NCBI GenBank assembly: GCA_017450965.1
Contig: JAFSSQ010000010.1
Coordinates: 6,424 to 70,423, forward strand
Length of the DNA stretch: 64,000 nucleotides
Direction: 5' to 3'
From: Clostridia bacterium
GTDB lineage: Bacteria; Bacillota; Clostridia; Oscillospirales; CAG-272
Positions 20,494 through 43,179 of the stretch are shown here, in pieces. The stretch's first letter is position 1. The number at the start of each line of letters is the position of its first letter. The notes beneath the pieces are model-generated. The model was not told the origin of the DNA and did not search any database. It saw nothing but the letters and a program-made list of their open reading frames with translations. A program made the position numbers and the translations under genes.

Positions 20494-20560
20494 CGTTTTT
20501 TCCTCTGTTCTACCTTCCGGGCGGTTTCGCCCGGCGGATCGTTTCAATTGATTTCAGTTT

Positions 20561-20589: not shown

Positions 20590-20698
20590 TTTTTTTCTTC
20601 CCGCCCGGGCAACAAGCGGTAAAAAGACGCCAAGAATAGGCAAAAAAGCCGCCGCCGCTTTCCGCTTTGGCATATCTTGCAAAACTGCGGGAAGGCCC

Positions 20699-20727
20699 TT
20701 GCGTTTTCCGCCCGGCGGTGGTATACT
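20699..20727 (+). promoter_or_regulatory. SigA-type promoter for rbsK-SIS
   Basis: TTGCGT-N17-TATACT with extended -10 (TGn). Confidence 0.65.
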
Positions 20728-20766
20728 GGACGCAAAGAAAACGATAACCGAAAAGAGGGAAAGAAT

Positions 20767-24046: not shown

Positions 24047-24102
24047 AACGGCCTCACAAGGGGGCCGGGCGCCGCCCGGTCCCGGTTTTTTAGAGGAAGA
24101 AA

Positions 24103-24138
24103 GCGGGACCGTAGGCGCGAAAACGCCTGCGGTCCCGC
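24103..24138 (-). terminator. Internal stem-loop (partial terminator or stabiliser)
   Basis: gcgggaccg.aggcg/cgcct.cggtcccgc stem followed by tttctt on the minus strand, between two co-oriented genes. Confidence 0.55.
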
Positions 24139-24146
24139 GCGTTTTG

Positions 24147-25490
24147 TCAGTTTTCGTTTGCGGAGCGGCAGCGGAAGAAGAGGATCGCAGAGGCAACGCA
24201 CCCGCAGAGAGAAACGATCAGGAGGATAATGGCGTAGACGGGAACAGAGGAGGAGCCGGAGCCGCTGCTCGCGGGGGTCGTTTCCGCGGCGGTCTCGGCG
24301 GGCGCCTTGGTCTCGGCGGCCTGCGTTTCGGCGGGCTTGGTCTCGACGGTCGCCTGGGTCTCCGCCGCGTCCGTTTCACCGGGCGCTGCGGTCTCGGGGG
24401 CGGCCGTTTCGGGCGCTTCGGTCTCGACCGGGACCTTCGACGCGTCGTAGAGGACCTGGTCAAAGCCGGTCGCTTTCGTCAGGAGGTCGGCGTTGGGCGT
24501 CTCCCAGGCGGAGGCGTCCAGGGTAATCCCCTGCGAGAACTTTTCGTGCTCGCCGACGTCGCCGGTGACGATCATTCCCTTTTTCGCGAAGGTGCCGCCG
24601 TTGATCTTCAGGACGGCGGTCCCTTTGATGCTGCCGGAGCCGGCAACGGCGCCGGTGATTTCCGTCGTGTCGATGAAGTCGCCGCCGTTGATGACGACGG
24701 TGGCGTTGCCTTCGACCGTCCCGGTGCCGAGGACGCGGATCGACTTTTTGAAGGTACCGCCGTTGATGGTCAGCAGGACGTCGCCCTTGATCGTGCCGTC
24801 GCCCGCGGCAAAGACTTCCGCGTTGATCTCGCCGCCGTTGATGGTAACGGAAACGCTTCCTTCATTGACGCAGTTGAGCTTCTGGTTGTTCCGGGTGCCG
24901 CCGCGGATCATCTGCCAGGAGCCGCCGTTGATGGTCAGATCGCCGCCGTGCGCGGCGTCCTGCGCGGCGTCGTCGTTACGGCCGGCGGTGATGCCGATGT
25001 AGTTGGAGCTGCCGTCTTTGACGCACTCCACGTCCTCGCCGATCACGACCTTGTTGCCGTTGCAGCAGTAGAGCGAGGTGCTCTTCTGGACGCGGATCTT
25101 CAGATGGTCGAGCGTGTGCGCGCTGTTGAAGTAGAGCCACATATCGGAGAGCAGCGCGGCTTCCGCCGTCGTACGGTAGTCGGTCCCGTTCCAGACGCTG
25201 GTCAGCGTATAGGCGCCCGTGGCGGTTTCCGGCGTGCGGTAGTCGGAGCCGTCGGCGGAGCGGGAGAGGGTCAGCGGTCCGCAGATCACGATCATGCCGC
25301 CGTTCGGCAGCGCGGCGTAAGCGGCGTTCAGAGAGGCCTTCGCCTTCTCGGGGGAGGAGCCGTCGGAGAGGTCGCTTCCGTTATCGCTGATAAAGCAGAC
25401 GTCATCCGCCGCCGCCGCGGGCGCGGCGGCGAGGGGGACGAGGAGCGTCAGGACAAGGAGAAGAGAGAGAAGATAACAAATCTTTTTCAT
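24147..25490 (-). CDS. Secreted, C-terminally anchored surface protein with a probable beta-solenoid domain
   Basis: Signal peptide; FISDNGSDLSDGSSPEKA start motif; repeated (L/V)xINGG units; PETAAP linker; C-terminal TM plus basic tail; AAAGGAG RBS. Confidence 0.7.
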   Translation of the reverse strand: MKKICYLLSLLLVLTLLVPLAAAPAAAADDVCFISDNGSDLSDGSSPEKAKASLNAAYAALPNGGMIVICGPLTLSRSADGSDYRTPETATGAYTLTSVWNGTDYRTTAEAALLSDMWLYFNSAHTLDHLKIRVQKSTSLYCCNGNKVVIGEDVECVKDGSSNYIGITAGRNDDAAQDAAHGGDLTINGGSWQMIRGGTRNNQKLNCVNEGSVSVTINGGEINAEVFAAGDGTIKGDVLLTINGGTFKKSIRVLGTGTVEGNATVVINGGDFIDTTEITGAVAGSGSIKGTAVLKINGGTFAKKGMIVTGDVGEHEKFSQGITLDASAWETPNADLLTKATGFDQVLYDASKVPVETEAPETAAPETAAPGETDAAETQATVETKPAETQAAETKAPAETAAETTPASSGSGSSSVPVYAIILLIVSLCGCVASAILFFRCRSANEN

Positions 25491-25522
25491 GATAGGTACT
25501 CCTTTCTGAAATCCCGGCGGGA

Positions 25523-27037
25523 TCAGTTGCCGAGTGTTTCGCGGAGCTTGACGTACTCGGCTTTCGCGGCGTCCACGTTCGCGGCGTAGACAGAGGCGAA
25601 GCCGTTGGTTCCGCGGATCGCTTCGGTGCGCAGATTGGTGATGATCTTAGCGGGATCGAGGGTAACGCCGAGGTCAAAGGTGCGATCCTGCAGGATCAGG
25701 GTCAGCATGTCGACGTTGAGGTCGTGGTCGCGCACGCTGCGGGTCCCGAAGACGTGATCAAAGAACACCGTCTTGATGTCGCGCTGATTGAGATAGCCCA
25801 TCGCGTTGATCACGGCGACGGTCTCGGTCTGATGCTCGGTCGCGCCGTAGGGGATCGTAACGATCGACATCTGCGGGCTCTGGATCAGAGAGTTGTAGCT
25901 TTCCTGCTTTTCGTCGAATTTGGGGAAGGGCAGGAAGCCGTAGTCGTCCTGCATATCCCAGAGCTGGAAGGAGCCGCAGATCGTCTCGGCGAAGAAGAGG
26001 AAGCGGCCGGTGGAGAAATAGATGCCGGATTTGCCGGCCAGGCTCGTGCCGCCGGAGTAGGAGGTGTCGTGCACGTTGAGGGTGGTGTCGTGAGAGAAGA
26101 CGCGGGTCAGCTGCTCCAGAGCGGCGACCTTCCGGTCGGTCAGCTCGAAGAGCGTCGGCCAGTTCTCGTCGTCGGACGCCGCGCAGGTCTCGTCCATGCC
26201 GTTGAGCGTGTACTCAAAGGTCTGGTTGCCGCAGACAAGGCCGTACTGGTCGTATTCGTAATCCATCTTGTCGTTGGCGTTCAGGTCATCGGTGCCGGCG
26301 GCGATCATTTCGTTCCACTTGTCGATCGTCCACTTGCCCTCGCGGACGAGCTGGAAGGCGTCCTCGAGGTTGAGAGTCTTCCCGAGCGTGTAGTTGTACA
26401 TGATGCAGGCGGTGGATTTCCAGGCCATGATGTTCATTTCGCCCATCGCGAAGTAACGGTACTTGCCGCCCCAGTTGAGGGTGTCGTTGACCGTCTTGTT
26501 CCACCAGGGATCGTCGAAGTTGAGCCCTTCCACCTCGTTGAGGTTGGTGACAAGCGCGCCGGAGAGGAGTTTGGTCATCTGGGTCCCGTTGGAGAAGTAG
26601 GAGTCGTAGGTGTGGTCGCCGGAGTTGACCTCCCGGCGGATCGTGTCGCCCGCGTTGGTGTGGGTCTTCTGGTCGTGGAGAATGGTGCAGTCAAAGGTGT
26701 CTTCGATCTCGCTGTTGCGGCGGTAGAGCGCCTCGGAGAGGACTTCTCCGTCCGAGTTGCCGGCGATATCGTAGTTGATCCACCAGTTCGTGTCGCCGCC
26801 GGTCAGGAAGTAGATGGTGGCGCCGTCAAAGTTCTTTTTGCCGAATTTTTCCTCAAGAGAGAGGTTCGAGGCCGCCGCGTTGTCGGTCTCCGTGGAGCCG
26901 GCGGGCGTCGTGCCGGAGGGGCCGGCCGGAGAAGGATTGCGGGCCGCTCCCGCGATGATGACCGTCATCCAGACGGCCACGGCGAGGAAGACGACAAAGA
27001 GCGCGGCGAAGATAGGGCTGCTTTTTTTAGAAAGCAT
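25523..27037 (-). CDS. Extracellular solute-binding protein (carbohydrate ABC SBP-like)
   Basis: N-terminal TM anchor; WWNKTVN, GKWTIDKW, DDYGFLPFPKFDEKQ features typical of clostridial sugar SBPs; AGGAGG RBS. Confidence 0.8.
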   Translation of the reverse strand: MLSKKSSPIFAALFVVFLAVAVWMTVIIAGAARNPSPAGPSGTTPAGSTETDNAAASNLSLEEKFGKKNFDGATIYFLTGGDTNWWINYDIAGNSDGEVLSEALYRRNSEIEDTFDCTILHDQKTHTNAGDTIRREVNSGDHTYDSYFSNGTQMTKLLSGALVTNLNEVEGLNFDDPWWNKTVNDTLNWGGKYRYFAMGEMNIMAWKSTACIMYNYTLGKTLNLEDAFQLVREGKWTIDKWNEMIAAGTDDLNANDKMDYEYDQYGLVCGNQTFEYTLNGMDETCAASDDENWPTLFELTDRKVAALEQLTRVFSHDTTLNVHDTSYSGGTSLAGKSGIYFSTGRFLFFAETICGSFQLWDMQDDYGFLPFPKFDEKQESYNSLIQSPQMSIVTIPYGATEHQTETVAVINAMGYLNQRDIKTVFFDHVFGTRSVRDHDLNVDMLTLILQDRTFDLGVTLDPAKIITNLRTEAIRGTNGFASVYAANVDAAKAEYVKLRETLGN

Positions 27038-27061
27038 CGTGGTTTCCTCCTTTTTTTTGTT

Positions 27062-29203
27062 TTATTTGCGGAAAAGAACAACTTTCTTTTCCTTGGCTTT
27101 CAGGGTGAGGGGGAAGGAAAGACGCTTGCCGCTCTCCGCGTCGTAGGCCTTCAGGGAGGCGGGCAGGGAGAGGAGCTCGGTATCCAGGACGGGGGAGACG
27201 GTCTCGTCGTGGTAAGCGGTGTTGTAAAGGTGCAGGATCGCGCTCCCGCCCCCGGCGGCGCGCTTCACCCCGCGGCGGACGGTCTCCGGGATCCCGGAGA
27301 GGCCGACGGTGTCGGTAAAGGTGCCGTCCCGGTAGATCTCCGGATACTTCGCCCAGAGCGCGTGCAGACGCTTGGAGGTGGGGTAAACGTAGGGGTGCTC
27401 CAGCAGGGGAGAGAAGACGGAGAAGGCGTAGCCCGCCATATTGTCTCCGATCTCGCCGCTGGCCTGCATACCGAGCATCGGGCGGTGCATTACGTAGGTA
27501 AGCGCCTCCGGACGCGCGTAAGAGGCCTTGGGGTTGCCCCATTTCCGCCACCAGTGCATGCACATGATGTCGATGTACGGATCGTAGGCGTCGCCCACGC
27601 CCTCGCAGCCGCAGATGTAATCGTCCGGACGGTATTTTTTGATCATCCGGTAGACCTTCGAGAAGAAGCGGCGATAGCCCTCGTTGAACGCGGTGGCCGG
27701 CGTTTTGTGGCCGTGGGTGCGGTCGTAGCAGAGGTAGGCGGGCATCGTCATCAGCTCGTCAAAGTAGATCCCGTCCGCGCCGAGCTTCATCACCGTTTCC
27801 ATCGCGCGCACCGCGGCGTTCGTCCAGGCGTCGGACATCGGGCACTGCGCGACGAAGTACTGGCGCGAGGTGCCGGGATACCGCTCGATCCAGACGTTGC
27901 CGTCCGGCTTCTTGATCGCGCAGTCGATGCCGATGCGGTCGGCGACCTTGCCGGGGCGGCGGAACCATTTCGACTCGCGGTCGGCGATGTGGACGTTGAC
28001 GTAGAAGATCGCCTTCATCCCCGCCTCGTGGACCTGGCGGATCGCCTCGCGGAGGCCTTCCTTGCCGCCGAGCTCCTTGACCGGCTCGTAGTCGGGATAC
28101 CAGGCGTCAAGCCCGCCGACGTGCCAGCCGATGAAGAGGACGAGGTCGGAGCCGCCTTCGTCCCTTGCGCGGACGGCGGCCTTGAGGAAGGTGTTAAAGT
28201 CCGGGGAGCCCATCCCGTCCGCGTTCAGGCAGCGGCAGGACATATCGGCGGGCGCCGTCACGGTCTTGGCCGGCGCGTCCTCGGTGTATTTGAGATGGTA
28301 ATAGGAAGGGAAGGAAACGCACTGATACACCGCCATCCCGCGGACGTTCTTTCCCGCCTGCGTCCGGCCGGGACCCTTTTCCGGGGCCGAAGCGCGGAAG
28401 CGGTTGTAAACGTCGGCGGCGAAATGCCAGTCGCCCTCGCCGGCGCCGAGGCAGATCGGAGCGAGCGTGGAGCCCTGACCGGGCGCGAGGAAAGGCCAGT
28501 GGCGGATGTAGAGCTTGCCGCTCTTTTCAAAGCCGAACTGCTTGTAGGAGTGGTCCTTGTCGTGGTGGCCGAGATAGAGGTGCTCCTTCTCGTTGTAAAC
28601 GGCGCAGCACTGCGCGGAGAAGGGAACGGGGTAGTTGGTGACGATCACGTTTTCGGTATACGTGTCGTTGTCGCCGATGGTGGAACGGAACTGGATGCGG
28701 TTCTCGGTCGTGAAGTCGCTGCCCTCGGCCGGGGAACGGAAGGCCTTTTTGAAGAGGGAGCCGTCCTGGATCGGCCAGTAGAGGGAGTCGTCCCCGCCTT
28801 CGACCCCGGAGAGGTCGGGATAGCGGAGACTGACGAGCACGCCCTTTTCGGAGCGGTTCTCCGTCCGGAGAGAGGCCTCGACGCAGCGCCCGCCTTCGGT
28901 GAAGCGGAGTTCTTCCTCGAAGACGACGAGCATGCCGTTTTCCGCAACGGTGCGGCGGATCACGAGACGGTCCTTTCCTTTCTTTTCAAAAGCGGCGGGC
29001 CGGCCCTTCACCGTGAAGGTCGCGGCGGTCTCGGCGTCGGGACGGCTGTCCCAGATGTCAGACACGCCGGAGTCAAACACAAAGCTGATCCAGCTGTCGG
29101 CGCGCCGCAGGTACTCCCGGCCGGTGGTCTTGTTCTTGAGACCGGTCAGGCACCCGTCCGAGTTCCGGAAAGACAAGCGAAGATACTGAGATTCAAAAAT
29201 CAT
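27062..29203 (-). CDS. Cytoplasmic DUF6259-like putative glycoside hydrolase (TIM barrel)
   Basis: IGW...DAWYPDY, LGGKEGLREAIRQVHEAG, YVN, QCP, DGIYFDEL, EG...D. No signal peptide. ATG 29203 with AAGGA RBS. Confidence 0.6.
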   Translation of the reverse strand: MIFESQYLRLSFRNSDGCLTGLKNKTTGREYLRRADSWISFVFDSGVSDIWDSRPDAETAATFTVKGRPAAFEKKGKDRLVIRRTVAENGMLVVFEEELRFTEGGRCVEASLRTENRSEKGVLVSLRYPDLSGVEGGDDSLYWPIQDGSLFKKAFRSPAEGSDFTTENRIQFRSTIGDNDTYTENVIVTNYPVPFSAQCCAVYNEKEHLYLGHHDKDHSYKQFGFEKSGKLYIRHWPFLAPGQGSTLAPICLGAGEGDWHFAADVYNRFRASAPEKGPGRTQAGKNVRGMAVYQCVSFPSYYHLKYTEDAPAKTVTAPADMSCRCLNADGMGSPDFNTFLKAAVRARDEGGSDLVLFIGWHVGGLDAWYPDYEPVKELGGKEGLREAIRQVHEAGMKAIFYVNVHIADRESKWFRRPGKVADRIGIDCAIKKPDGNVWIERYPGTSRQYFVAQCPMSDAWTNAAVRAMETVMKLGADGIYFDELMTMPAYLCYDRTHGHKTPATAFNEGYRRFFSKVYRMIKKYRPDDYICGCEGVGDAYDPYIDIMCMHWWRKWGNPKASYARPEALTYVMHRPMLGMQASGEIGDNMAGYAFSVFSPLLEHPYVYPTSKRLHALWAKYPEIYRDGTFTDTVGLSGIPETVRRGVKRAAGGGSAILHLYNTAYHDETVSPVLDTELLSLPASLKAYDAESGKRLSFPLTLKAKEKKVVLFRK

Positions 29204-29498
29204 AACGTTATCCTTTGATCCTTCTTTAAGATATGGTACGCTGAGTCTATTGTAGCATCGGCGAAAAAAGAGGGGAATATCATTTATTGGGCGATCGCTT
29301 GTCATTTCTTGCCGTCGGACGGGGGGAAGGGCCGCGCCCGGCTCCGGGAGCGGGGAGATCGGCCGAAAAAAGACAAAGCGATATATAAAATATAGAAATA
29401 ATAGGAAAAACCGGATTAAAGAAGATAAAAAGGGAGAGATAGAGAAAAAGGTTTTTTGTCTTTTTCTTTACAAAAATTGGCATATCAAGGAGAAAGTC

Positions 29499-29561: not shown

Positions 29562-30509
29562 ATGGCGACAGTTTACGGATTCGGTACGGCGGCGGTGGAT
29601 TTCCGCATCCGCACCGCGGATTTCGGCGATCTTTACAAGGACAAGCTCCTGGCGCAGACCATCGCGGAGATGGGCGGCGGCGCCGTGGCAAACTTCCTTT
29701 CCCAGGTCTCCCGTCTCGGCGGCAAGACCGCGTTTCTCGGCAAACTCGGCAGGGACGTGCCGGGGAAGAAGATCGTTTCTCTCCTGGAAGCGGAGGGGAT
29801 CGACTGCTCGCATATCCTGTATTCCGACACGCTCTGCTCTCCCTTCAACGTGGCCGCCTATTCCGGCGAGGGGATGCGCCGCCGCTGCGGCTTTCTGCTC
29901 CCGAACAGTCTTGCGTCGCTTGACGGGGAGGATATTTCCGCTCTGACGGAGGCGATCCGCCCGGAGGATCTGGTGATGGTCGAGATCGGAGAGATCCCGC
30001 CGGCCGCCGTGCTGTCCTTTATGCGGAAGGTGCGCGCGAAAGGGGCCAAACTCTTTATCGACGTGGACCTCGACCCCATCCGCCAGTGCGGCTTTACCCC
30101 AAAAGAGTTCGACGAGGTCTGCCGGCTCTCCGACGTCCTGATCCCGAACGTGGTCTCCCTCGGGGCGCTCTACCCCGATATGACGGCGCCCGCTTTGGCG
30201 GAAACGCTGTTTAAGATCTACGAAAAGCCCTGCGTGGTTTCCGCCGGACGGGACGGCGCCTTCTTCGCGGACCGGCCCGGTCCCGCGCAGAACGTCCCGG
30301 TCTACGAGGTCGAGGTGGTCGACACCGTCGGCGCGGGGGACGCGTTCCACGGCGGATTTGTTTACGGAATGCTTTCCGGCCTGCCGATCGGAGAGGCGGT
30401 GCGCTGCGGCTGCGTCTGCGGCGCGCTCAACTGCCGTACCTTCGGCGCGCGGGAAGGGATGGCGCGCAGGGAAGACCTGGACCGCGCCCTGAAAGGAGAA
30501 AACGGATGA
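29562..30509 (+). CDS. PfkB family carbohydrate kinase
   Basis: GGGAVAN, GKLGRD, PN, VDTVGAGDAFHGG, CGALNC...GAR. AGGAGG RBS. Confidence 0.9.
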   Translation: MATVYGFGTAAVDFRIRTADFGDLYKDKLLAQTIAEMGGGAVANFLSQVSRLGGKTAFLGKLGRDVPGKKIVSLLEAEGIDCSHILYSDTLCSPFNVAAYSGEGMRRRCGFLLPNSLASLDGEDISALTEAIRPEDLVMVEIGEIPPAAVLSFMRKVRAKGAKLFIDVDLDPIRQCGFTPKEFDEVCRLSDVLIPNVVSLGALYPDMTAPALAETLFKIYEKPCVVSAGRDGAFFADRPGPAQNVPVYEVEVVDTVGAGDAFHGGFVYGMLSGLPIGEAVRCGCVCGALNCRTFGAREGMARREDLDRALKGENG

Positions 30510-31717
30510 GTTCTTATTACAGCTTGCTCGAGACGGCGACCGACGCGCAAAAGCAGATCGCCGCGCTCCGGTTCCCCGGAGACGACGCCGCGGAAAAGGG
30601 GATCTTCCTCGGCTGCGGCGCCGCGCTGAAGGCCGGAGAGTTTCTGAAAAAGAGAGGAGCGTCCCGGGTGGCGGTCGTCGCCGACCGGATCCTCGAAAAG
30701 GTCGGGCTGCTCACGCCCGTCCTCGATTCTCTGAAGGAAAACGGCCTCGCGTACGACGTGTTTTCCGATATCGCGCCCGAGCCGCATACCGACGATCTGG
30801 CCGCGGCGGAGGCGTTTGCCCGCGCTCTTGCGGCGGACGCGGTGCTCGGCTTCGGCGGCGGCAGCTCGCTCGATACCGCAAAGGTCACGGCCTGCGCCCT
30901 GTCCGGCGCGGCGTCTTCTGTCGATCTGATCACCGGCAAAGCGCCGGTTTCCCGCGCCGTCCCGCTGATCCTGCTGCCCACGACCTCCGGTACGGGGAGC
31001 GAGGTCAGCCCTTACGCCGTGGCGAGCCACGAGGGCAAAAAGGTCTTTATTTCCTCGCCCGCCGCGATCGCGGACGCCGCTCTCGTCGACCCGCTGATGA
31101 CGGTCACGATGCCGCCGTCCGTTACCGCCTGCACCGGGCTTGACGCTCTCACGCACGCGGTGGAGGGCATGTGCGGCTGCCCCAACCCCTTCACGAAAGC
31201 GCTGGCCAAAGAGGCGACGGAGATCGTCTTCTCCTCTCTCCCGGCGGCGGTCGCGGAGCCGGAAAACCTCGACGCGCGTACGAAAATGTCCTACGCCTCG
31301 GTGCTCGGGATGATGGCGTACACGCAGGGAGGCGGGCTCTACGCGCACAGCGCCTCGTATATCATCACCCTGCAAAAGAACAAACCCCACGGGCTCGGCT
31401 GCGGACTGACGCTGCCGTACACGCTCGCGCTCAACCTCGCCGAGATCCGGGATCTGCTCACGGGCCTGATCCCCGCGATCAAAGCAAGCGGGCTCGCGGC
31501 GCCGGCAAGCGCCGATGAGGTGCCCGCCGCCTTCCTTGCGCTGGTGAAGAAGGTCGGCGTTCCCGCCACGCTGGCGGAGATCGGCTATACCGAAGCGGAC
31601 GTTCCCGCCTTCGGCCACGCCCTCTTTGCCGATTACTACCGCGCGAAAAATCCGAAAAAAGCCGACGAAGCCGACCTTGTCGCGCTGGCCGGCCGGATGC
31701 TGACCGGGACGATCTGA
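30506..31717 (+). CDS. Iron-containing alcohol dehydrogenase
   Basis: GGGSSLDTAK, PTTSGTGSEVS, DALTH, H...PHG metal ligands. Confidence 0.88.
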   Translation: MSSYYSLLETATDAQKQIAALRFPGDDAAEKGIFLGCGAALKAGEFLKKRGASRVAVVADRILEKVGLLTPVLDSLKENGLAYDVFSDIAPEPHTDDLAAAEAFARALAADAVLGFGGGSSLDTAKVTACALSGAASSVDLITGKAPVSRAVPLILLPTTSGTGSEVSPYAVASHEGKKVFISSPAAIADAALVDPLMTVTMPPSVTACTGLDALTHAVEGMCGCPNPFTKALAKEATEIVFSSLPAAVAEPENLDARTKMSYASVLGMMAYTQGGGLYAHSASYIITLQKNKPHGLGCGLTLPYTLALNLAEIRDLLTGLIPAIKASGLAAPASADEVPAAFLALVKKVGVPATLAEIGYTEADVPAFGHALFADYYRAKNPKKADEADLVALAGRMLTGTI

Positions 31718-31772
31718 TCCCGCTGAAACCGCTCTCAAAAAAATTGATATATTTTTCAGGAGGAAACAAGTT

Positions 31773-32486
31773 ATGGAAATTTACGGTGCCGGTTCTCTCG
31801 AGGACGTGCGGATTTGCACGGAGCTCGGCGTCACGGGGATCCTCACGAATCCCCAGGGCTTTGAGCAGTATTATCAGGGCAAGATGACGCTCCGCGAGAT
31901 CACCGAAGCTCTCCTCAAAGCGAGCGACGACGGCCGCGACATCCCGGTCTTCATCCAGGTCCACGGACGTGACGCGGAGGAGATCGCCCACCGCGTGGAG
32001 GAGCTGCACGAGCTCAACCCCCGCCGCGTCTGCGGCAAGATCATCGCGGACGAAAAGGGCTTCCGCGCGATCAAAAAACTGCACGACGAAGGCATCCGCT
32101 GCGTCGCGACCTGCCTCTTCTCGCTCTCTCAGGCGGCGGTCGCCGCGATGGTCGGCGCTTACGCGATCTGCCCGTTCGTCTCCCGCGCGACCGCGATGGA
32201 GATGGATATGTTCGGCATCATCCGCAGCATCAAAGAGTGCTACCGTGACACGCCGAACGCGCCCCGCATCCTCGCCGCCAGCATCAAGAGCACCGCGGAC
32301 GTCAACGGCGCTTACGCCGCCGGTACGGACGCCGTCGCGCTCCGCTATCCGATGCTCCAGCAGATGATGGACCACGTCCTCACCACCCGCGCGGAAGCGC
32401 TCTTCGCCAAGAACTGGGCGAACGTCAAGGGCGAGGACATGAGCTACATGAAGGAAAAGATCAAACTCGAAGGCATCGCGGAATAA
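31773..32486 (+). CDS. Fructose-6-phosphate aldolase/transaldolase family protein, atypical active site
   Basis: TNP, FIQV, Schiff-base K (VCGKII), T-x-LFS, PFVSR, LAASIK. Confidence 0.8.
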   Translation: MEIYGAGSLEDVRICTELGVTGILTNPQGFEQYYQGKMTLREITEALLKASDDGRDIPVFIQVHGRDAEEIAHRVEELHELNPRRVCGKIIADEKGFRAIKKLHDEGIRCVATCLFSLSQAAVAAMVGAYAICPFVSRATAMEMDMFGIIRSIKECYRDTPNAPRILAASIKSTADVNGAYAAGTDAVALRYPMLQQMMDHVLTTRAEALFAKNWANVKGEDMSYMKEKIKLEGIAE

Positions 32487-32500: not shown

Positions 32501-32536
32501 AAAAAAGGACGGGAAGCAGCGCTTCCCGTCTTTTTT
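32501..32536. terminator. Bidirectional intrinsic terminator
   Basis: gacgggaagc/gcttcccgtc stem flanked by A6 and T6. Confidence 0.85.
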
Positions 32537-32542
32537 ATTCTC

Positions 32543-33451
32543 TTATCCGATCTCAAACGCCGCCAGCAGCCGCCGGAACGTGTCCTGCCCGTCGAGACAG
32601 GTGTCGGTAAGCCAGCCCTTTTCGTTCTCCCATTCGGCGAGCCCGCGATAATAAAATGCCTTTTTGCCGTCCTCGATGAGGAAGGGAACGATCCGGTACC
32701 GCAAGCACTCCTTGAGCGCGATCAGCCGCCCGACGCGGCCGTTTCCGTCCTGGAACGGATGGATCTTTTCAAACGCCGCGTGGAAGGCGACGATATCTTC
32801 CACGGAGATTTCCGGTTTCGCGTTGTAACCGGCGAGCAGCTCTTTCATCCGCGCCGGCACGTCTTTCGGCTTCATCGTTTCCCGCCCTCCCACAACGTTG
32901 GGGCGTTTTTTGTACTCTCCCACGGCAAACCAGGCAAGCGTGGAATCTTTTGTGTCGTGTTTCAGGATAAAGTGCAGTTTTTTGATGATCGCCTCGGAGA
33001 GCGGTTCCTCGGCGCAGTCGATCACGTAATCGATGGCGCGGAAGTGATGTACCGTCTCCAGAACGTCGTCGACCGGAACGCCGTCGCCGATAGTCAGCGT
33101 GTTCGTTTCGTAGATCAGACGCGTCTGATCCTCGGTCAGACGGCTGCCTTCGATATGGTTGGAGTTGTAGGTCATACGCACCTGCAGCTCGTGATACAGA
33201 CCGCCCGAGAGTTTCGCTTCTTTTTCTTCGCGCAGGGTCTGCAGGATCGGATTGTCCGAGATTTCACGGACGAGGTCTTCCGGACGGCACACAAAGAAAG
33301 CGGCGAGCTTTTTCATCACGGCAGGGGAAAGTTTTTCGCCCTTGCCGATCTTGGCGACCGTCCGCGACGAGAGCCCGAGCAGCCGTGTCAGATCCGATCG
33401 CCCGATCCCGCGCTCCTTCAGTTTTTCTTCAAGCCCATGGTAGGAAATCAT
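32543..33451 (-). CDS. Fic family protein with N-terminal Cro/C1-type HTH
   Basis: Canonical HPFQDGNGRVGR and TYNSNHIEG; N-terminal HTH (LTRLLGLSSRTVAKI). Confidence 0.93.
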   Translation of the reverse strand: MISYHGLEEKLKERGIGRSDLTRLLGLSSRTVAKIGKGEKLSPAVMKKLAAFFVCRPEDLVREISDNPILQTLREEKEAKLSGGLYHELQVRMTYNSNHIEGSRLTEDQTRLIYETNTLTIGDGVPVDDVLETVHHFRAIDYVIDCAEEPLSEAIIKKLHFILKHDTKDSTLAWFAVGEYKKRPNVVGGRETMKPKDVPARMKELLAGYNAKPEISVEDIVAFHAAFEKIHPFQDGNGRVGRLIALKECLRYRIVPFLIEDGKKAFYYRGLAEWENEKGWLTDTCLDGQDTFRRLLAAFEIG

Positions 33452-33475
33452 AGCTATCCCCCTTCATCTTTACTT

Positions 33476-33504
33476 ATTATAGCACAAAGGACGCAAAAAG
33501 TAAA
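33476..33504 (-). promoter_or_regulatory. Promoter of the Fic gene
   Basis: TTTACT-N17-TATAAT with extended -10. Confidence 0.55.
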
Positions 33505-33580
33505 GATTTCAGGCAAAAAATCCTCTGAAAAGGAAAGATTCCCTCCGGCCGCGGCGAAACCGCGCCCGGAGGGAGGGAAG

Positions 33581-33620
33581 AAGCCCCCGGCTGCCCGATG
33601 AACGAGCCGGGGGCTTTTGC
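33581..33620 (-). terminator. Hairpin ending the RM-island operon
   Basis: aagcccccggct/agccgggggctt stem; a second hairpin lies at 33539-33579. Confidence 0.6.
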
Positions 33621-33638
33621 TTTTATACGTTATAATTA

Positions 33639-34403
33639 CTAGGCTCTTTGCGCTGAGGCATAGAAATTTGCTTTTTCCGGGCATAAGGAAGCAACCTCAA
33701 TGATTATAAGCCGCGGGGTTTTTCCGAACGGGGGCGAAATATAGGGAGAAAACCACAAAACAAAATCAGCTCCACATTGTTTTATTTTTTTTAAAAAATC
33801 AATGTCGTAACATGGATGATGGAGTGCCTTGCTGGTTTTTCCGTTTTTGTTGATGACGCGAAAATGCTCATGTTCGGATATATCGCACACTACAAAAGCA
33901 AGGTGGTCACATTCCGGATGATTCTTTTTATAATATGATATTTTGTTCTTGTGGCTATCGATCACGCGGCAAAAATTCTGATAGTATTGGTCATAATCCG
34001 GTTCCATTTTGTCTTCATACTCGAACATTATGTTAGTAACAGCTGGGAATTGGTTTGTAATACTTGATTTTATAATCTCCTTTGCTGAAAAAGCGCCTTC
34101 TCTTGCAGGGGGATTATCCGGGCTTCCGCCGGGCTTTGTCTTTTCATAATCATTGACACTCATGAATTCAAGCATCAGTTTCTTTTCGGAATTGATGTAA
34201 TCGGGCGGATTGCTTGTGTTTTCAGAGTTGTCAAGCCAACCGTTCGATTCTTTCAAAGTTTTGAAACACTTTTTTTCAAGAGGGGATCCGGTAAGATAAA
34301 CGACTTGTTTTTTTGTTGTTTTAATTAAATGTTCAAAAGCATACTTTTCTTTTTGGAAAAGATCATGAACAAATTTCCCGTTTTGAATCATTCCAAAAGC
34401 CAT
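33639..34403 (-). CDS. Hypothetical protein, possible PD-(D/E)xK-like nuclease
   Basis: AT-rich 254-aa ORF 8 bp after res; PPDY...LMLEF motif. Confidence 0.55.
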   Translation of the reverse strand: MAFGMIQNGKFVHDLFQKEKYAFEHLIKTTKKQVVYLTGSPLEKKCFKTLKESNGWLDNSENTSNPPDYINSEKKLMLEFMSVNDYEKTKPGGSPDNPPAREGAFSAKEIIKSSITNQFPAVTNIMFEYEDKMEPDYDQYYQNFCRVIDSHKNKISYYKKNHPECDHLAFVVCDISEHEHFRVINKNGKTSKALHHPCYDIDFLKKIKQCGADFVLWFSPYISPPFGKTPRLIIIEVASLCPEKANFYASAQRA

Positions 34404-34411
34404 TTTTTCAT

Positions 34412-36565
34412 TTATCCGCCTGATTTAATGATCGGAGATTTCATAAACCTCTGAAACTGTTCCAGCGTCATATTCCTTTCGTTTCCGTTTGCCAACTGTG
34501 TGATATGCCATTCATCGCCCTTATAAACTGGAAGGTAGAACATATATTCAGTAAGAAGCGATGCTTGTTTATAACACCTTTTAAGTTCCTCAACTTTGAC
34601 CTTGTAGGCGGTGGAGTCAAACGCCGTCGGCGTTGCATTAGATATGTTAACGCTCTTTACTTCAAACAAATGAATTCTATCAAAAGAATCCTTCATAATG
34701 AAATCCGGATACGACGAGTGAACGCCGCCTAAGCAGTATTCAAACTTTATTTCGGAGTTTAATAAAAAGTTTTTACCCCATAAGTATTTTTGTGCGGCAT
34801 CTATCCTTTCCGGCTCGATTTCGCCAAAAAGATCAACTTGACCGGCTTTCGGATTTCGTTTACCCGTCAACACACGTTTTCCGACGCGCTTTCCGTCAAA
34901 CCCCTCTGTATCAGACGAAACGAGTTCTTTGATAATGCTTGCCCATTCGCGTTCAGCTTCACTATCAAACGAGAACTTATCCTTGCCGTCTCTTCTTCTC
35001 CATACCCAGTCTCCGATGTTTACATAATTGCGATTATCAACATAGGAAGAGGTAACGGGGAACGATACTTCGCGCGGTGTGCCGGCGTCATCGGTTGTTA
35101 ACTCCATACTCTCCGCATAATCGCAAGAGTAACGGTTACTTTCCGCCTCGATTTTCTCCGCGTGCTCGGCAACTCTCCACCATTTTTCGATATTGTTGCC
35201 AATGTATTCATAGCAGAGATCCCTTGCAGCGTTATCCAGCTTTTGAGTTGCCTTGTATAGATCAAAAATGTTTGAATAACTGGATACGTTCGGCTGGCTC
35301 GACAAAAACTCCTCAAGATCAAATCCGGTTTTTTTCGTGAGCGGCTTCAAGCGTGTAGTATGTATTCTGATTGCGTTTGTAATATCCTCCGGCTCGTCCC
35401 ACAAACGAACGCCGATGGTTTTTCTAACGTTATCATCGATGTTTGCCCATATCCAAGCCGTCATTGCAAGTTCTTGCGCTTGCGGAGAAAGATGCTCATA
35501 ATCAAGCAACCTCGGATTCCTTCTGACTCTGCCTATAACCTGCTCGCCGAGGATGGGACTTTGTACAGATCTGACTTGATATAACATACAAGCTCTTGGA
35601 ATATCCCATCCCTCGGATATAACCATCTTGAAAATGATAACATCAATGCCACTTGTGTTTTCTTTAGCATAGTCTTTCCATTTGGAAACAGGGAGGACAC
35701 GACACTTATCGGTAGTTTCGCTTTTTATGCCGTTTTCTTTTTTTTCGTCGACAATAAGCATCCAGTTCAAGTTTCGTCTTTTGAGTTCAGGGAAAACTAA
35801 ATTGTTTAACTCATCAACCCCTTGTTCGCCATTGGATATTTGAATAATAAGGCACGGATTAATATTAAGAAGGTCAAGGTAGTTTTGCTTAATTTCTTCA
35901 AACTTGTTGATCGCGTCGCCAAGATTATCTTTTTCTTCTCCCTCAACAATATGTTTGATCAATTTTGCGTTTTCCGCATCGGTTGATTTGATCTCTACAT
36001 CGGGGTACTGTCCTTTTGTGGGATCCGGTGTTGCAGAGAAGTTCAACACTTTTGCAAAATAAGTGTGAGATAGAATATCAAGATTGTTTGTTGCGCTGTG
36101 GCACTCGTCTTTGATAAGATATACTTCCTTGTGGTTTTTCCAAGAATAGCAGCCGGTTATTTCCTGAAAAAACGCATCCATTGCTGCCCCTTGCATCAAT
36201 CTGCTTCCTTCTCTGTAAAGGTCGCGAGGAAGAACATATACATTGTAATCCGTGGGAATATACAACCGTTCTTCTCCCGAAAGTTCGGATGAAATCAGAT
36301 ACGGATTCAGATGCGGGAATGCCCCTGTTTGTTGATACTCGCAAAACTTTGAATAGTTCTGTCCTGCAAGATCGCCTTTCGATAACGAGGATACCAAAAA
36401 TACTATATCATCATTTTGTTCGAGAACACGATTCATCAAATCAGCCATCATATATGTTTTGCCGCTGCCGGTAGGAGCTTTGAACGTGATCTCGTTTTTG
36501 TCACGGAGCTGTTCAACCAGTTCCAAAACAGCGTTGAGTTGAAGATCTTTCGCTTCCTGTAACAT
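34412..36565 (-). CDS. res: Type III restriction endonuclease subunit (SF2 helicase + PD-(D/E)xK)
   Basis: APTGSGKT, DECH, SAT, EGWD, QVIGRVRR, C-terminal YPDF...FEVK. TAATG coupling to mod. Confidence 0.9.
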   Translation of the reverse strand: MLQEAKDLQLNAVLELVEQLRDKNEITFKAPTGSGKTYMMADLMNRVLEQNDDIVFLVSSLSKGDLAGQNYSKFCEYQQTGAFPHLNPYLISSELSGEERLYIPTDYNVYVLPRDLYREGSRLMQGAAMDAFFQEITGCYSWKNHKEVYLIKDECHSATNNLDILSHTYFAKVLNFSATPDPTKGQYPDVEIKSTDAENAKLIKHIVEGEEKDNLGDAINKFEEIKQNYLDLLNINPCLIIQISNGEQGVDELNNLVFPELKRRNLNWMLIVDEKKENGIKSETTDKCRVLPVSKWKDYAKENTSGIDVIIFKMVISEGWDIPRACMLYQVRSVQSPILGEQVIGRVRRNPRLLDYEHLSPQAQELAMTAWIWANIDDNVRKTIGVRLWDEPEDITNAIRIHTTRLKPLTKKTGFDLEEFLSSQPNVSSYSNIFDLYKATQKLDNAARDLCYEYIGNNIEKWWRVAEHAEKIEAESNRYSCDYAESMELTTDDAGTPREVSFPVTSSYVDNRNYVNIGDWVWRRRDGKDKFSFDSEAEREWASIIKELVSSDTEGFDGKRVGKRVLTGKRNPKAGQVDLFGEIEPERIDAAQKYLWGKNFLLNSEIKFEYCLGGVHSSYPDFIMKDSFDRIHLFEVKSVNISNATPTAFDSTAYKVKVEELKRCYKQASLLTEYMFYLPVYKGDEWHITQLANGNERNMTLEQFQRFMKSPIIKSGG

Positions 36566-38205
36566 TACTTGTCTTCCTCCAGACGCTTTTTCCAATCAGC
36601 GTCACTTTCAAGAACCTTTTGAGTTCCTTCAAAGTTCCGACAAATCCACTCGATCTTTTCTTTCAACGTGCTGAATTTCTCTTGACCGTACAACGTTTCA
36701 TCAATCACGTCAAAAGCCGTCTGCCCCGGAACACTTTCAAAATTAGCAACCTCCGCAATCTCATACACGTCAAGACTGCCGCCTAAAGGTTCATTGTCAT
36801 TAGCCCATTTGAAGTCGGTTGATCCGTCATAACAACTGCCAGTCATTGTTCTTTTTAACCTTTTTGAAGTAACATCATAGGCAATGCCGTGTGGATTTAC
36901 AGGTGTTTTTTCGTTTATTTGGCAGAGAACAAATCGTCTCTTTCCGTCATCTTGTTTATTCAATTCAAGAACCGCTTGACCTGTAGTTCCGCTTCCTGCA
37001 AAAAAGTCTAAAACCGTTGCTTCCTTTTTCCAATAAGTAGTCGATTTTAATAAGAGCTGGACAAGACCGACAGGCTTTGGATTGTCAAATGTATCGTCCA
37101 AAATCTCTTCTAATTGTGCGGTGCCATCTTCGTTTGTTTCACAGTTATAAAATACTTGAGATAGCATATTCCCCATTTTTTTGATTTCGCCGCCATCCTT
37201 TACAAGGTTGGGTCTAAATGGCACTTGGCTAATCGTAATAATGCTTCCTTTTGAGATCTCGTCATCAAGCGTTTCTTGACTATATCTCCATTCGCCTTCA
37301 AGCACCATCTCATTTATGTTTGTTCCATCCTCAATTACAACATCATTTAGTAGTCTTGTAATGATATTCCCGTTTGACATATCTTGTGCCTTGACTGTGC
37401 CATCAGGCATATTGAACCTAACGCGATTGGGTGGGAAATGCAATTTCCCCATAGTGTTTCCTGCGTTATTGAAAGGGTATTTTTTTCCAACAGTTGTTGT
37501 TTCAACAGAAAACGGAAAAGTTTCTTGATAATTAGCCACATAGCAAAGAATGTACTCGAACATTGTCCCAAAGTTCTTTGACAAGAATGACGGTTTTTTC
37601 TTTTTTTGCCAAATAATTGTTCCCGAGTAGTTTCTCTCTTGAAACACTTCATCCATTAGGCATTTTACATACGCATAATTACGATCATCAATACTACAAA
37701 ATATCACACCTGTTTCAGATAACAACATCTTCGCAAGTGTCAATCTGGAATAAAGCATGGACAATAAATTATCACGTGTCAATGCATTCTCATAATTTGT
37801 CTGAGCAAATTCGCCCATGCTGTCTTTCCCATACGGTGGATCAATATAAATAACATCAATTTTGCCCTTGTACTGAATAAGCAAATTGAGCAAACCGTCG
37901 TAATTATCGCCAATAATCAATTTGTTCGGCGACTTATCCGACCCATCTGAAAAACTCAATTCTTCGTTTTTCTTGAAATACTTTATAGCGGGCTCGGTTT
38001 TTTCAAGGCGTTTATCAAAATGGAATCCCGTCCTCTTATAAGTTGTACCGAGTTCGGCAATAAAAATTGCTTCCGTCAGCGTGTCGGCGTTTTGAATAAG
38101 CTTTTTAAGAAGATCAGCGTTGCTCTTTTCGATAATACCGTCTTCCATACGGCGATCCAGTTCGTTTATCAGTTCCTGCCGGCTTTGTTCAAAAACTGTT
38201 TTCAT
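36565..38205 (-). CDS. mod: Type III DNA methyltransferase subunit
   Basis: IYIDPPY and VLDFFAGSGTTG in beta-class order. ATG 38205 with GGAG RBS. Confidence 0.92.
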   Translation of the reverse strand: MKTVFEQSRQELINELDRRMEDGIIEKSNADLLKKLIQNADTLTEAIFIAELGTTYKRTGFHFDKRLEKTEPAIKYFKKNEELSFSDGSDKSPNKLIIGDNYDGLLNLLIQYKGKIDVIYIDPPYGKDSMGEFAQTNYENALTRDNLLSMLYSRLTLAKMLLSETGVIFCSIDDRNYAYVKCLMDEVFQERNYSGTIIWQKKKKPSFLSKNFGTMFEYILCYVANYQETFPFSVETTTVGKKYPFNNAGNTMGKLHFPPNRVRFNMPDGTVKAQDMSNGNIITRLLNDVVIEDGTNINEMVLEGEWRYSQETLDDEISKGSIITISQVPFRPNLVKDGGEIKKMGNMLSQVFYNCETNEDGTAQLEEILDDTFDNPKPVGLVQLLLKSTTYWKKEATVLDFFAGSGTTGQAVLELNKQDDGKRRFVLCQINEKTPVNPHGIAYDVTSKRLKRTMTGSCYDGSTDFKWANDNEPLGGSLDVYEIAEVANFESVPGQTAFDVIDETLYGQEKFSTLKEKIEWICRNFEGTQKVLESDADWKKRLEEDK

Positions 38206-38305
38206 TTTTATTATCTCCAATTCTTACTATTCGTTCAGTATTTGAGTATTTCAACGGATAGAACAAGTTTCATTTTGCAGAGAGCGGCGAGGACAACGCG
38301 GTAAA

Positions 38306-38885: not shown

Positions 38886-39794
38886 TTACCGGAACCGTAC
38901 CGGTTTGTCGGTTTGCTTTTTGAGCGCCTCGAGGAAGGCGAGGTTTTCCTCGCGGGAGGCGAGGGGGGTATCGGCGAGGGCGTAGGGCCTGCCGAGCTCG
39001 CGGTATTTGCCGACGCCGAGCCGGTGATAGGGGAGCAGCTCCACGGCGGCGACGGGGAGGGGGGCGAGGAGGGCCGCCAGGTCCGCTGCAAACGCCCCGG
39101 TCATATTGACGCCGGGGATGAGGGGGACGCGGACGACCGTCTCGGTGAGCTTTGCCGCCGTCCGGAGATTTTCGAGGATCGGCTTGTTGCTTTGTCCGGT
39201 ATAACGGATATGTTCGGCCTCGTCGAGAAGCTTCACGTCAAAGTAGACGCGGTCGACCATGCCGGCGATCCGGGCAAAAACGGCGGGATCCGCGAAGCCG
39301 CAGGTTTCGATCATCACGTTGATCTTTTCCCGTTTGAGGCGTTCGATCAGCGCGAGAACGAAGTCCGCCTGGGCGGTTACCTCGCCGCCGGAGAGGGTGA
39401 CCCCGCCGCGAGAGTCCTCGTAGTAGTCCCGGTCCTTCAGTATGAGCTCGGTCAGCTCGTCGACGGTGTAGGGCTTGCCCGCCTCCCGGATCCGGTCAAA
39501 CGGGCATAGCGTTTCGCACCTTCCGCAAAAAACGCACTTGTCCGGGTCGGCCGACACGCCCTGTTCCGAAAGGGAGAGCGCGCCCTGCGGGCAGGCGGAA
39601 AGGCATTTTCGGCAGTCGGCGCACGCGCCGGCGGGCTTGATCATCAGCTCGGAGGAAAAACTCTGCGACTCGGGGTTGCAGCACCACGCGCAACGCATCG
39701 GACAACCCTTGAAAAAGACGGTCGTCCGGATGCCGTCCCCGTCGAACAGGCAGAAACGCTGAACGTCGAAGATCAGAGCAGTCGTTTTCACCAT
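38886..39794 (-). CDS. Glycyl-radical enzyme activating enzyme (radical SAM, with 2x[4Fe-4S] insert)
   Basis: DGDGIRTTVFFKGCPMRCAWCCNPES, CxxCxxCxxxCP twice, GVTLSGGE, LLPYH. Confidence 0.95.
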   Translation of the reverse strand: MVKTTALIFDVQRFCLFDGDGIRTTVFFKGCPMRCAWCCNPESQSFSSELMIKPAGACADCRKCLSACPQGALSLSEQGVSADPDKCVFCGRCETLCPFDRIREAGKPYTVDELTELILKDRDYYEDSRGGVTLSGGEVTAQADFVLALIERLKREKINVMIETCGFADPAVFARIAGMVDRVYFDVKLLDEAEHIRYTGQSNKPILENLRTAAKLTETVVRVPLIPGVNMTGAFAADLAALLAPLPVAAVELLPYHRLGVGKYRELGRPYALADTPLASREENLAFLEALKKQTDKPVRFR

Positions 39795-43177: not shown

Positions 43178-43179
43178 AA

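Follow-up and report, generated by a model that had tools for sequence, protein, structure and literature searches.

A gene at positions 31773 to 32486 (forward strand) of a catabolic locus in a Clostridia bacterium encodes a protein of 237 amino acids that, judged from its sequence, is a conserved natural variant of the transaldolase/fructose-6-phosphate aldolase (TAL/FSA) family, belongs to a clade without the aspartate Asp6, and is predicted to be a class I aldolase. The protein keeps the Schiff-base lysine and the phosphate site of the family and has lost, in addition to Asp6, both acid-base residues, namely, the Glu of transaldolases and the Tyr of fructose-6-phosphate aldolases (FSA). 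It is probably a kinase-coupled sugar-phosphate aldolase that releases a small aldehyde. More tentatively, D-arabinose 5-phosphate (A5P) is proposed as the substrate, which would be cleaved to glycolaldehyde and glyceraldehyde 3-phosphate (GAP). The stretch of DNA analyzed, referred to here as the window, comprises 64,000 nucleotides (assembly GCA_017450965.1, contig JAFSSQ010000010.1, positions 6,424 to 70,423 of the forward strand), and window coordinates are used throughout.

Transaldolases and FSA, textbook enzymes that are in wide use as biocatalysts, have mechanisms that are accounted for by Asp6 together with either Glu or Tyr. Because the lysine and the phosphate site persist in a lineage without Asp6, Glu, and Tyr, this lineage would have to use another proton relay, another kind of donor, or both.

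Gene, fold, and family assignment

The gene, hereafter called the aldolase gene, starts with an ATG at 31773 and ends with a stop codon at 32486. Direct reading of the sequence showed a Shine-Dalgarno motif (AGGAGG, 31758 to 31763, forward strand) 9 nt before the ATG, and a bidirectional hairpin terminator (32502 to 32536; a 16-bp stem followed by a T-run) at the end of the operon. The encoded protein carries the signature YGAGS, ILTNPQGF, FIQxHG, CIAT, ICPFVSR, R191, and E208, with K89 as the Schiff-base lysine, and ends in a 17-aa C-terminal extension. It matched the Pfam family TAL_FSA (PF00923) with an E value of 7e-24 and 85.1 bits, against a cut-off of 27, which places it in the superfamily. 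This was the sole Pfam family with an E value of 0.01 or less, and the family of deoxyribose-phosphate aldolase (DERA; DeoC, PF01791) was not matched. At the level of NCBIfam, the protein scored 93.8 bits with TIGR00875 (fsa_talC_mipB), below the equivalog cut-off of 245.95, and 40.5 bits with TIGR00874 (talAB), below the cut-off of 396.

The AlphaFold (AF2) model, built with 54 homologues, had a pLDDT of 93.8 and showed a (beta/alpha)8 barrel with the fold of the short, decamer-type subfamily. In a Foldseek search, it superimposed on the solved structures 3s0c (TacTal), 1l6w (FSA), and 1wx0 with TM scores of 0.83 to 0.85 and a root mean square deviation of about 2 Å. A protein atlas search with the aldolase returned nothing beyond "transaldolase family."

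Active site

Three alignments were used: a HMMER alignment to the Thermus and Thermoplasma transaldolases, a MAFFT alignment with FsaA and FsaB of Escherichia coli K-12, and an alignment that added 135 sequences representing the wider family. All three were concordant on the active-site residues. Lys85 of FsaA, the Schiff-base lysine on strand 4, is kept as K89, Asn28 as N26, and Thr109 as T113; the phosphate site (Arg134, Ser166, and Lys168 in FsaA) is kept as R138, S170, and K172. Asp6 of FsaA aligns with G5, or with A6 in an ungapped alignment of the first eight residues, and is non-acidic either way; strand 1 of the model ends at A6. Thr26 aligns with L24. Q62 takes the place of FsaA Gln59 and transaldolase Glu60, and F135 that of FsaA Tyr131 and transaldolase Phe132. 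Further replacements are Met61 by H64, Leu107 (Asn108 in transaldolases) by V111, which is Ile in the rest of the family, Ala129 (Ser130 in transaldolases) by C133, and Pro187 by R191.

The protein thus shares with the whole TAL/FSA group the Schiff-base lysine and the Arg/Ser/Lys(Arg) phosphate site and fits neither of its two classes. As in FSA, Gln stands at position 59, but the catalytic Tyr131 that accompanies it there is Phe in all 121 homologues counted, and the Asp6/Thr26 pair, which binds the 3-hydroxyl of the donor, is replaced by an invariant G5-A6 and L24. As in transaldolases, Phe stands at position 132/178. The transaldolase Glu (E60 of TacTal, E96 of TalB) and Asp (D6/D17) are replaced by Q62 and G5/A6, and Asn108/Ser130 (N154/S176 of TalB), which contact the C1 hydroxyl of the dihydroxyacetone (DHA) unit, are replaced by V/I111 and C133. 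With A6/G5, L24, I111, and C133 around it, the donor pocket is predicted to be fully non-polar.

The original prediction, made from the sequence alone, had described a homologue with neither Glu nor Tyr at the acid-base sites, without Asp6, and with the lysine retained. The alignments placed neither Glu nor Tyr at these sites, and the loss of Asp6 and the identity of K89 were borne out as well. The loss of both Glu and Tyr is real but not unique to this protein, since 15 of the 135 other family representatives have Asp, Thr, Gln, and Phe at the four positions. For the cysteines near the site, which had been suggested as acid-base stand-ins, no support was obtained. C133 (in ICPF) is indeed invariant, but it occupies the pocket-lining Ala129/Ser130 site, which is Ser in the nearest sisters; C114 (in TCLF) is variable (Thr in 59, Cys in 53, and Ala in 6 homologues), and it is C110 that is conserved instead. 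Better candidates for a proton relay, as predicted from conservation, are the family-specific polar residues Q28, H64, R191, and E208.

Conservation and phylogeny of the family

A search of 5.8 billion proteins returned more than 120 homologues of the aldolase with 53 to 98% identity, nearly all of them unnamed or labeled "transaldolase," and conservation was counted over 121. Invariant in all 121 were G5, A6, G7, T25, N26, P27, Q28, G29, Q62, K89, A112, T113, C133, F135, R138, and S170, while H64, C110 (120/121), R191, and E208 were near-invariant. The lysine and the phosphate site (K89, R138, S170, and K172) were likewise invariant or near-invariant, and about 45 further positions were invariant over seven phyla. 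Judged from these counts, the residue pattern is conserved well beyond chance, and the aldolase represents a family rather than an accident.

The homologues all come from uncultured bacteria, in at least seven phyla. In species-representative genomes, 36 loci were found, all of them in metagenome-assembled genomes (Clostridia, Spirochaetes, Verrucomicrobia, Planctomycetes, Lentisphaerae, Bacteroidota, and Atribacteria). In a profile search of 1.84 billion representatives, the family formed one 50% cluster (425 bits), followed by a few intermediates (230 to 130 bits) and then by ordinary Tal/FSA sequences. In a FastTree phylogeny of 141 sequences, midpoint rooted and obtained with this single method, all 22 Asp6-less representatives fell into one clade with a support of 0.97, and the subclade of the query (10 sequences) had a support of 0.997. 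The sister Asp6-less groups carry Gln/Tyr or Glu/Phe at the two acid-base sites and, as seen in P0134, P0136, P0148, P0152, P0154, P0143, and P0147, signatures of the type W-(I/L)-A...V. What defines the clade, on the evidence of the alignments, is the loss of Asp6/Thr26 on top of the loss of Glu and Tyr. Among solved structures, none was nearer to the query clade or its sister groups than ordinary transaldolases, and the sister groups likewise had no solved or named member. The Asp6-less superclade is one without a solved or characterized member.

A kinase-dehydrogenase-aldolase module in several phyla

The aldolase gene is the third and final gene of a tight operon on the forward strand. The first gene (29562 to 30509) encodes a PfkB-family sugar kinase of 315 aa when read from the ATG at 29562; the longest open reading frame starts at a TTG at 29499. 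The kinase matched Pfam PfkB (3.6e-38), lies far under every NCBIfam equivalog cut-off, and has weak relatives of known structure in 4du5, YdjH, 2-keto-3-deoxygluconate (KDG) kinase, and ribokinases. The second gene (30506 to 31717), whose start overlaps the stop of the kinase gene, encodes a FucO-like group III iron-dependent alcohol dehydrogenase (Fe-ADH; Pfam Fe-ADH, 3e-41, and ADH_Fe_C). Its top NCBIfam match was lactaldehyde reductase (201 bits, under the cut-off), the GldA profile was matched at only 1e-07, and its relatives of known structure, methanol dehydrogenase, 1,3-propanediol dehydrogenase, and FucO, are small-substrate enzymes.

All open reading frames within 7 kb of the aldolase gene were clustered over the 36 loci. 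An orthologous PfkB kinase gene is adjacent to the aldolase gene at 32 of them, and an Fe-ADH gene is present at 22, mostly immediately upstream. Other recurrent neighbors encode a DapA/NanA-family lyase (19/36), an MtaA/URO-D-like protein (11/36), which might remove methyl ethers from sugars, and a sialidase-like BNR protein (7/36). A block of DmpF, DmpG, a glycyl radical enzyme (GRE), and its activase occurs at 6 to 7 loci, and a TRAP transporter with an IclR regulator occurs at several. No isomerase family was recurrent in these neighborhoods. Such an operon context is unlike any context of FSA or transaldolase.

Smaller versions of the module were also observed. At loci L028 to L030 (and also L007), it consists of a 465-aa protein with Asp-box-like motifs, the aldolase, the PfkB kinase, and the MtaA/URO-D-like methyltransferase homologue. 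At L032, L034, and L036, the aldolase and PfkB genes lie near genes for an FAD oxidoreductase, a phosphoribosyltransferase-like protein, and a sulfatase.

The surrounding catabolic locus

The window is one large catabolic locus. On its reverse strand lies an operon that encodes a DmpF/MhpF-type acetylating acetaldehyde dehydrogenase (43180 to 44061; TIGR03215, 409 bits, above the cut-off), a DmpG/MhpE-type 4-hydroxy-2-oxovalerate aldolase (42161 to 43180; TIGR03217, 386 bits, above the cut-off; Pfam HMGL-like and DmpG_comm), a GRE of an uncharacterized orthogroup (39788 to 42130; PFL-like, 1.7e-195, and Gly_radical), and a radical SAM activating enzyme for the GRE (38886 to 39794; Radical_SAM and Fer4). 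The DmpG reading frame is open as far as 43744; since the family match starts only at residue 190, the true start probably lies just after dmpF. An AraC-family regulator (44125 to 45009, reverse strand; HTH_18 and AraC_binding) is encoded next to this operon. The GRE is closest to the B12-independent glycerol/propanediol dehydratases (1r8w, 1.8e-182; 5i2a, 1.1e-173), with PflD and YbiW scoring lower, and is 48 to 54% identical to the GREs beside the aldolase cluster in other phyla. The order DmpF-DmpG-GRE-activase is kept across phyla (in the window and at L006, L013, L014, and L021). The GRE was rejected as an obligatory partner of the aldolase, since ten other aldolase-bearing genomes have GREs of only 28 to 42% identity or none.

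Upstream of the aldolase operon, a ribokinase-like kinase (20677 to 21741, forward strand; TIGR02152, 308.7 bits, above the ribokinase cut-off) is followed by a single-SIS, CBS-less homologue of the KpsF/GutQ-like A5P isomerases (21743 to 22339, forward strand; 198 aa; KpsF, 1.8e-37; KdsD, 8e-37). The two genes are translationally coupled, and a gene for a 520-aa calcineurin-like phosphoesterase (18985 to 20547, reverse strand) adjoins the former. From its sequence, this pair is a candidate for a catabolic link between A5P and ribulose 5-phosphate (Ru5P). Neither KdsA nor KdsB was found in this Gram-positive genome, so A5P would not serve 3-deoxy-D-manno-octulosonic acid (Kdo) synthesis here. 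An A5P isomerase was not found in four of five other Clostridia, and its role as a universal partner of the aldolase was rejected. In the genome (98% complete), the aldolase is the sole PF00923 protein, and a canonical DeoC above the cut-off and a transketolase are present.

The window also contains three reverse-strand genes of the GH183 (DUF4185) type. The first encodes an endo-alpha-D-arabinanase-like protein (22403 to 24196; Pfam DUF4185, 5.7e-62; 1.2e-33 to 8hhv/8ic1, annotated as endo-alpha-D-arabinanase), and the other two lie at 45037 to 47718 (9.6e-51) and 47764 to 50262 (7.2e-53). In a related Eubacteriales metagenome-assembled genome whose aldolase is 82% identical (L040), five DUF4185/GH183-like genes encoding 401 to 1,306 aa surround the operon (L040:2393-18359). 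Nine species of the genus were compared, and the aldolase, four to seven DUF4185 genes, the GRE orthologue (79 to 95% identical), and the A5P-isomerase-like gene occur together in seven of them; all four are missing from one species whose genome is 97% complete. The aldolase was found in none of 52 neighboring genera. The nine members are kin, and the co-occurrence may stem from a single gain or loss, in which case the genomes do not count as independent evidence.

Between the first GH183-like gene and the aldolase operon, three reverse-strand genes (24147 to 29305) encode proteins of 447 and 504 aa without a Pfam match and a 747-aa DUF6259/GH-like protein. They are common only to close relatives (L008 and L009) and may encode new exo-acting glycosidases or binding proteins. 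No similarity was found between the 447- and 504-aa proteins and the aldolase neighbors of 461 to 465 aa at L005/L007 and of 414 aa at L003. A low-GC island (32543 to 38220, reverse strand) parts the aldolase operon from the GRE operon and stands outside the pathway. Its GC content is 0.40 to 0.41 at 34 to 38 kb and 0.55 at 32 to 34 kb, versus 0.60 to 0.65 in the flanks. It encodes an HTH-Fic protein (32543 to 33451; Pfam Fic and HTH_26), a 254-aa protein without assignment (33639 to 34403), a 727-aa helicase/nuclease-like protein (34412 to 36595), and a DNA methylase (36565 to 38220; N6_N4_Mtase), and it looks like a mobile defense or restriction-modification insertion.

Proposed function

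In the proposed reaction sequence, the PfkB kinase would phosphorylate the terminal hydroxyl of a free sugar, converting D-arabinose to A5P. The aldolase would hold the phosphate in the Arg138/Ser170/Lys172 site, and Lys89 would form an imine with the sugar carbonyl, after which cleavage would yield GAP and glycolaldehyde as the small free aldehyde. The FucO-like Fe-ADH would reduce glycolaldehyde to ethylene glycol, which in genomes with the GRE/DmpF module would undergo dehydration to acetaldehyde and oxidation to acetyl coenzyme A (acetyl-CoA). Of the four steps (kinase, aldolase, ADH, and GRE with DmpF), the last three would be redox neutral. In this genus, D-arabinose would be supplied by a D-arabinan-like glycan through GH183; in other phyla, the NanA-like lyase would release it from a Kdo-like ulosonic acid. 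Ribose or Ru5P could enter the same A5P pool through the ribokinase-like enzyme and the isomerase, which would account for the presence of a second kinase. Should the GRE feed DmpG instead of taking the diol, only the tail of the pathway would change and the assignment of the aldolase would stay. That this complete, undescribed natural route operates, from D-arabinose through cleavage of A5P without Asp, Glu, or Tyr to acetyl-CoA, is doubtful but worth considering, and it is less likely than A5P as the substrate.

D-Arabinose was proposed because it is the sole sugar obtained from both hydrolysis of D-arabinan and aldol cleavage of Kdo, the latter being a known reaction (EC 4.1.2.23). The fixed D-threo stereochemistry of the family, together with glycolaldehyde as the donor, corresponds to the D-arabino configuration. 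In favor of A5P, one of the three GH183-like proteins of the window matches a solved endo-alpha-D-arabinanase, the aldolase, DUF4185, GRE, and isomerase genes co-occur within the genus, and the window holds homologues of both KdsD and FsaA. For other phyla, the link is suggested by the recurrent NanA/DapA-family lyase and sialidase-like BNR protein and by a TRAP binding protein whose best solved relatives are 4pf6, presumably with KDO as its ligand, and the sialic-acid-binding SiaP. As reported previously, E. coli FsaA cleaves A5P to glycolaldehyde and GAP with a KM of 0.65 mM, and KdsD and FsaA have been combined in an engineered pathway (PMC6900487). Literature on a natural A5P aldolase, a Kdo aldolase gene, or a GRE-linked pentose route was searched, and synthetic pathways only were found.

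Published work on FSA variants bears directly on the nature of the donor. In FSA, Asp6 hydrogen-bonds the 3-hydroxyl (alpha-hydroxyl) of the donor on the nucleophilic carbon, Thr26 orients Asp6, and Asn28 binds the 4-hydroxyl and tolerates no exchange (Junker et al. 2018, PMC6099348). Variants of the D6X/T26X type, including D6A/T26L, did not cleave fructose 6-phosphate (F6P) and were inactive with hydroxylated donors such as glycolaldehyde. They gained activity on non-hydroxylated aldehyde donors (propanal and butanal) with the (3S,4R) selectivity kept, and bulk at position 26 blocks the C1 space of ketones, which favors aldehyde donors (PMC6099348). Pairs of this kind occur naturally in the Tal superfamily (Ala/Leu, 9.25%; Ala/Ile, 19.85%; PMC6099348), and the present family, by its aligned residues, is a natural Ala(Gly)/Leu member that mimics FSA D6A/T26L. 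Because Leu24, Ile/Val111, and Cys133 fill the C1 pocket of ketoses, the donor would be an aldehyde and the substrate an aldose 5-phosphate bound through C1; an aldehyde rather than a ketone is thus the most likely donor on the predicted pocket. The donor may lack an alpha-hydroxyl unless Q28, H64, R191, or E208 (in the C-terminal helix) compensates. The original suggestion of an altered mechanism or substrate is supported by the FSA score far under its cut-off, the Asp6-less clade, the kinase-reductase-aldolase operon, and the effects of the D6X/T26X changes.

Several observations weigh against A5P as the substrate. The main difficulty is that the D6/T26 changes abolish the use of hydroxylated donors by FSA, which argues for a non-hydroxylated donor (PMC6099348). 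DUF4185 was not found in nine of the ten other aldolase-bearing genomes searched, and GH183 was rejected as a universal partner, since the association holds within the genus only. The ribokinase-like kinase and the A5P isomerase could by themselves convert D-arabinose to Ru5P, so the second kinase seems redundant. The four TRAP binding proteins were mutually only 24 to 28% identical. Marine loci have fucosidase, sulfatase, and L-fuconate-type neighbors; in this setting, the lyase and the ADH could be engaged in lactaldehyde chemistry without the aldolase. At L001 and L010 (aldolase 83% identical), the three-gene operon is flanked by ftsZ and the gene for ATP-phosphofructokinase, amid cell-division genes and without glycan-degrading genes, and DUF4185 was not found in that genome, from which it follows that the module may be able to act on an imported free sugar.

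Alternative functions

The main rival to A5P cleavage is a DERA-like aldolase with 2-deoxy-D-erythro-pentose 5-phosphate as the substrate and acetaldehyde as the donor. This function fits the active site best, because the site resembles FSA D6A/T26L, which prefers non-hydroxylated aldehydes (PMC6099348), and the predicted donor pocket is wholly non-polar. In addition, DmpF is an acetaldehyde dehydrogenase, reduction of acetaldehyde is common among Fe-ADHs, and the GRE resembles glycerol dehydratase, whose product is a "2-deoxy" aldehyde. In genomes with the GRE, D-arabinose might be converted through arabinitol or its phosphate to 2-deoxypentose 5-phosphate by radical dehydration and then cleaved to acetaldehyde and GAP, with DmpF or the ADH acting next. 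However, the genome already has a canonical DeoC, for which reason replacement of a missing DERA was rejected; many aldolase-bearing genomes keep the Fe-ADH-aldolase-kinase set without a GRE of the orthogroup; and genes for nucleosides or deoxyribose were not recurrent in the 36 neighborhoods. A DERA-like function is therefore considered unlikely. Still less likely is an FSA-like aldolase for deoxy-ketose phosphates, which would cleave, for example, 1-deoxy-fructose 6-phosphate (DF6P) to hydroxyacetone and GAP and lead to 1,2-propanediol in a kinase-fed variant of anhydroglycolysis. Cleavage of DF6P to these products is part of a published pathway (review, PMC13450708). In E. coli, fsaA adjoins ybiW-ybiY and gldA-fsaB adjoins pflD, and the protein studied here likewise combines Q62 and a hydrophobic pocket for C1 with a neighboring Fe-ADH gene; some genomes also have a GRE. 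That GRE, however, resembles glycerol/propanediol dehydratases more closely than PflD/YbiW and is missing from most aldolase loci, and the ADH is FucO-like rather than GldA-like. The acid-base Tyr131 of FSA is absent, as is Asp6, which binds the 3-hydroxyl that DF6P retains, and T26L-type bulk, by filling the C1 pocket, disfavors ketone donors.

A genuine transaldolase of the pentose phosphate pathway, which would transfer rather than release its product, is improbable. With Phe at the Tyr/Phe site, the protein has the residue of transaldolases and no Tyr to protonate the enamine, and it is the only TAL_FSA match in a genome that has a transketolase. On the other hand, Glu60/96 and Asp6/17 are missing, Ile and Cys occupy the DHA-hydroxyl sites Asn108 and Ser130, the talAB score is about a tenth of its cut-off, and the operon partners are a kinase and an aldehyde reductase. 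The distribution is that of a patchy accessory gene, as seen from the seven of nine species in one genus and its absence from the neighboring genera, and FSA variants at D6 lose all F6P activity (PMC6099348). The loss of three residues regarded as catalytic might also suggest a former aldolase that is now non-catalytic or regulatory. The conservation of the Schiff-base lysine, Asn26, Thr113, the phosphate site, and the further invariant positions, together with a conserved operon with enzymes, a strong ribosome-binding site, and a terminator, makes this very improbable. A 2-keto-3-deoxy-6-phosphogluconate (KDPG)-type aldolase with pyruvate as the donor, suggested by the weakly KDG-kinase-like kinase and the nearby IclR and TRAP genes, was rejected because of the hydrophobic C1 pocket and because the ADH implies an aldehyde product.

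Comparison with known enzymes and pathways

The closest matches of the aldolase in sequence and structure are the short transaldolases (TacTal, 3s0c; Thermus, 1wx0; Thermotoga, 1vpx), with 28% identity and a TM score of 0.85, and with these it shares the Phe at position 132, an HP-type motif in the C-terminal helix, and the TNP motif. It differs from them in the Glu60, Asp6, Asn108, and Ser130 replacements and in belonging to a catabolic operon, whereas theirs is the pentose phosphate pathway. With FsaA/FsaB (1l6w; TM score, 0.83), it shares the short decamer-type fold, the strand-4 lysine, Gln59, Thr109, the phosphate site, a hydrophobic C1 pocket, an adjacent Fe-ADH gene, and, in some genomes, a nearby GRE (YbiW/PflD in E. 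coli), and cleavage of A5P is a documented side activity of FsaA. Identity to FsaA/FsaB is, however, only about 24%; Tyr131 is replaced by Phe, Asp6 by Gly/Ala, Thr26 by Leu, Met61 by His, and Pro187 by Arg; and the C-terminal extension is added. Moreover, the aldolase would receive its substrate from a PfkB kinase and not through a phosphotransferase system, its ADH is not of the GldA type, and the linked GRE belongs to another clade and is optional. The D6X/T26X mutants of FSA resemble it in that positions 6 and 26 carry Ala/Gly and Leu, respectively, and Asn28 is kept (PMC6099348); they are laboratory-made and have Tyr131, whereas the present protein is natural, has no Tyr131, and has Q28, H64, R191, and E208 in addition.

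DeoC/DERA, a possible functional analogue, is also a class I enzyme with an aldehyde donor that yields GAP from an aldose 5-phosphate and has a ribokinase-family kinase partner (DeoK), but it belongs to another family, and the canonical DeoC is encoded elsewhere in the genome. The sulfofructose transaldolase BmSF-TAL (8bc3) is likewise a specialized catabolic offshoot of the fold, but its match (8.7e-11) was weaker than those of ordinary transaldolases, and no sulfoquinovose genes lie near the aldolase gene. The synthetic KdsD-FsaA ("glycoptimus") and SAGA pathways also join an A5P isomerase to an FSA-type aldolase to interconvert pentose phosphates with glycolaldehyde and GAP; the window adds a glycolaldehyde-type reductase. 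These pathways are man-made and use canonical FsaA; the natural locus may run the same reaction.

Implications

The lineage naturally bears the two replacements that were engineered into FSA for non-hydroxylated aldehydes and thus offers a ready scaffold for biocatalysis. Its kinase and reductase partners, together with the links to D-arabinan and to ulosonic-acid-type compounds, suggest that uncultured anaerobes of the rumen, the gut, and the sea have a catabolic route not described so far. If A5P is the substrate, nature already runs the reaction that was borrowed from FsaA for synthetic glycolaldehyde pathways, and the locus would be a natural counterpart of the engineered A5P/glycolaldehyde pathways. 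The assignment would also provide the first function for the Asp6-less part of the transaldolase superfamily; natural Ala6/Ile26 and Ala6/Leu26 pairs account for about 29% of that superfamily (PMC6099348).

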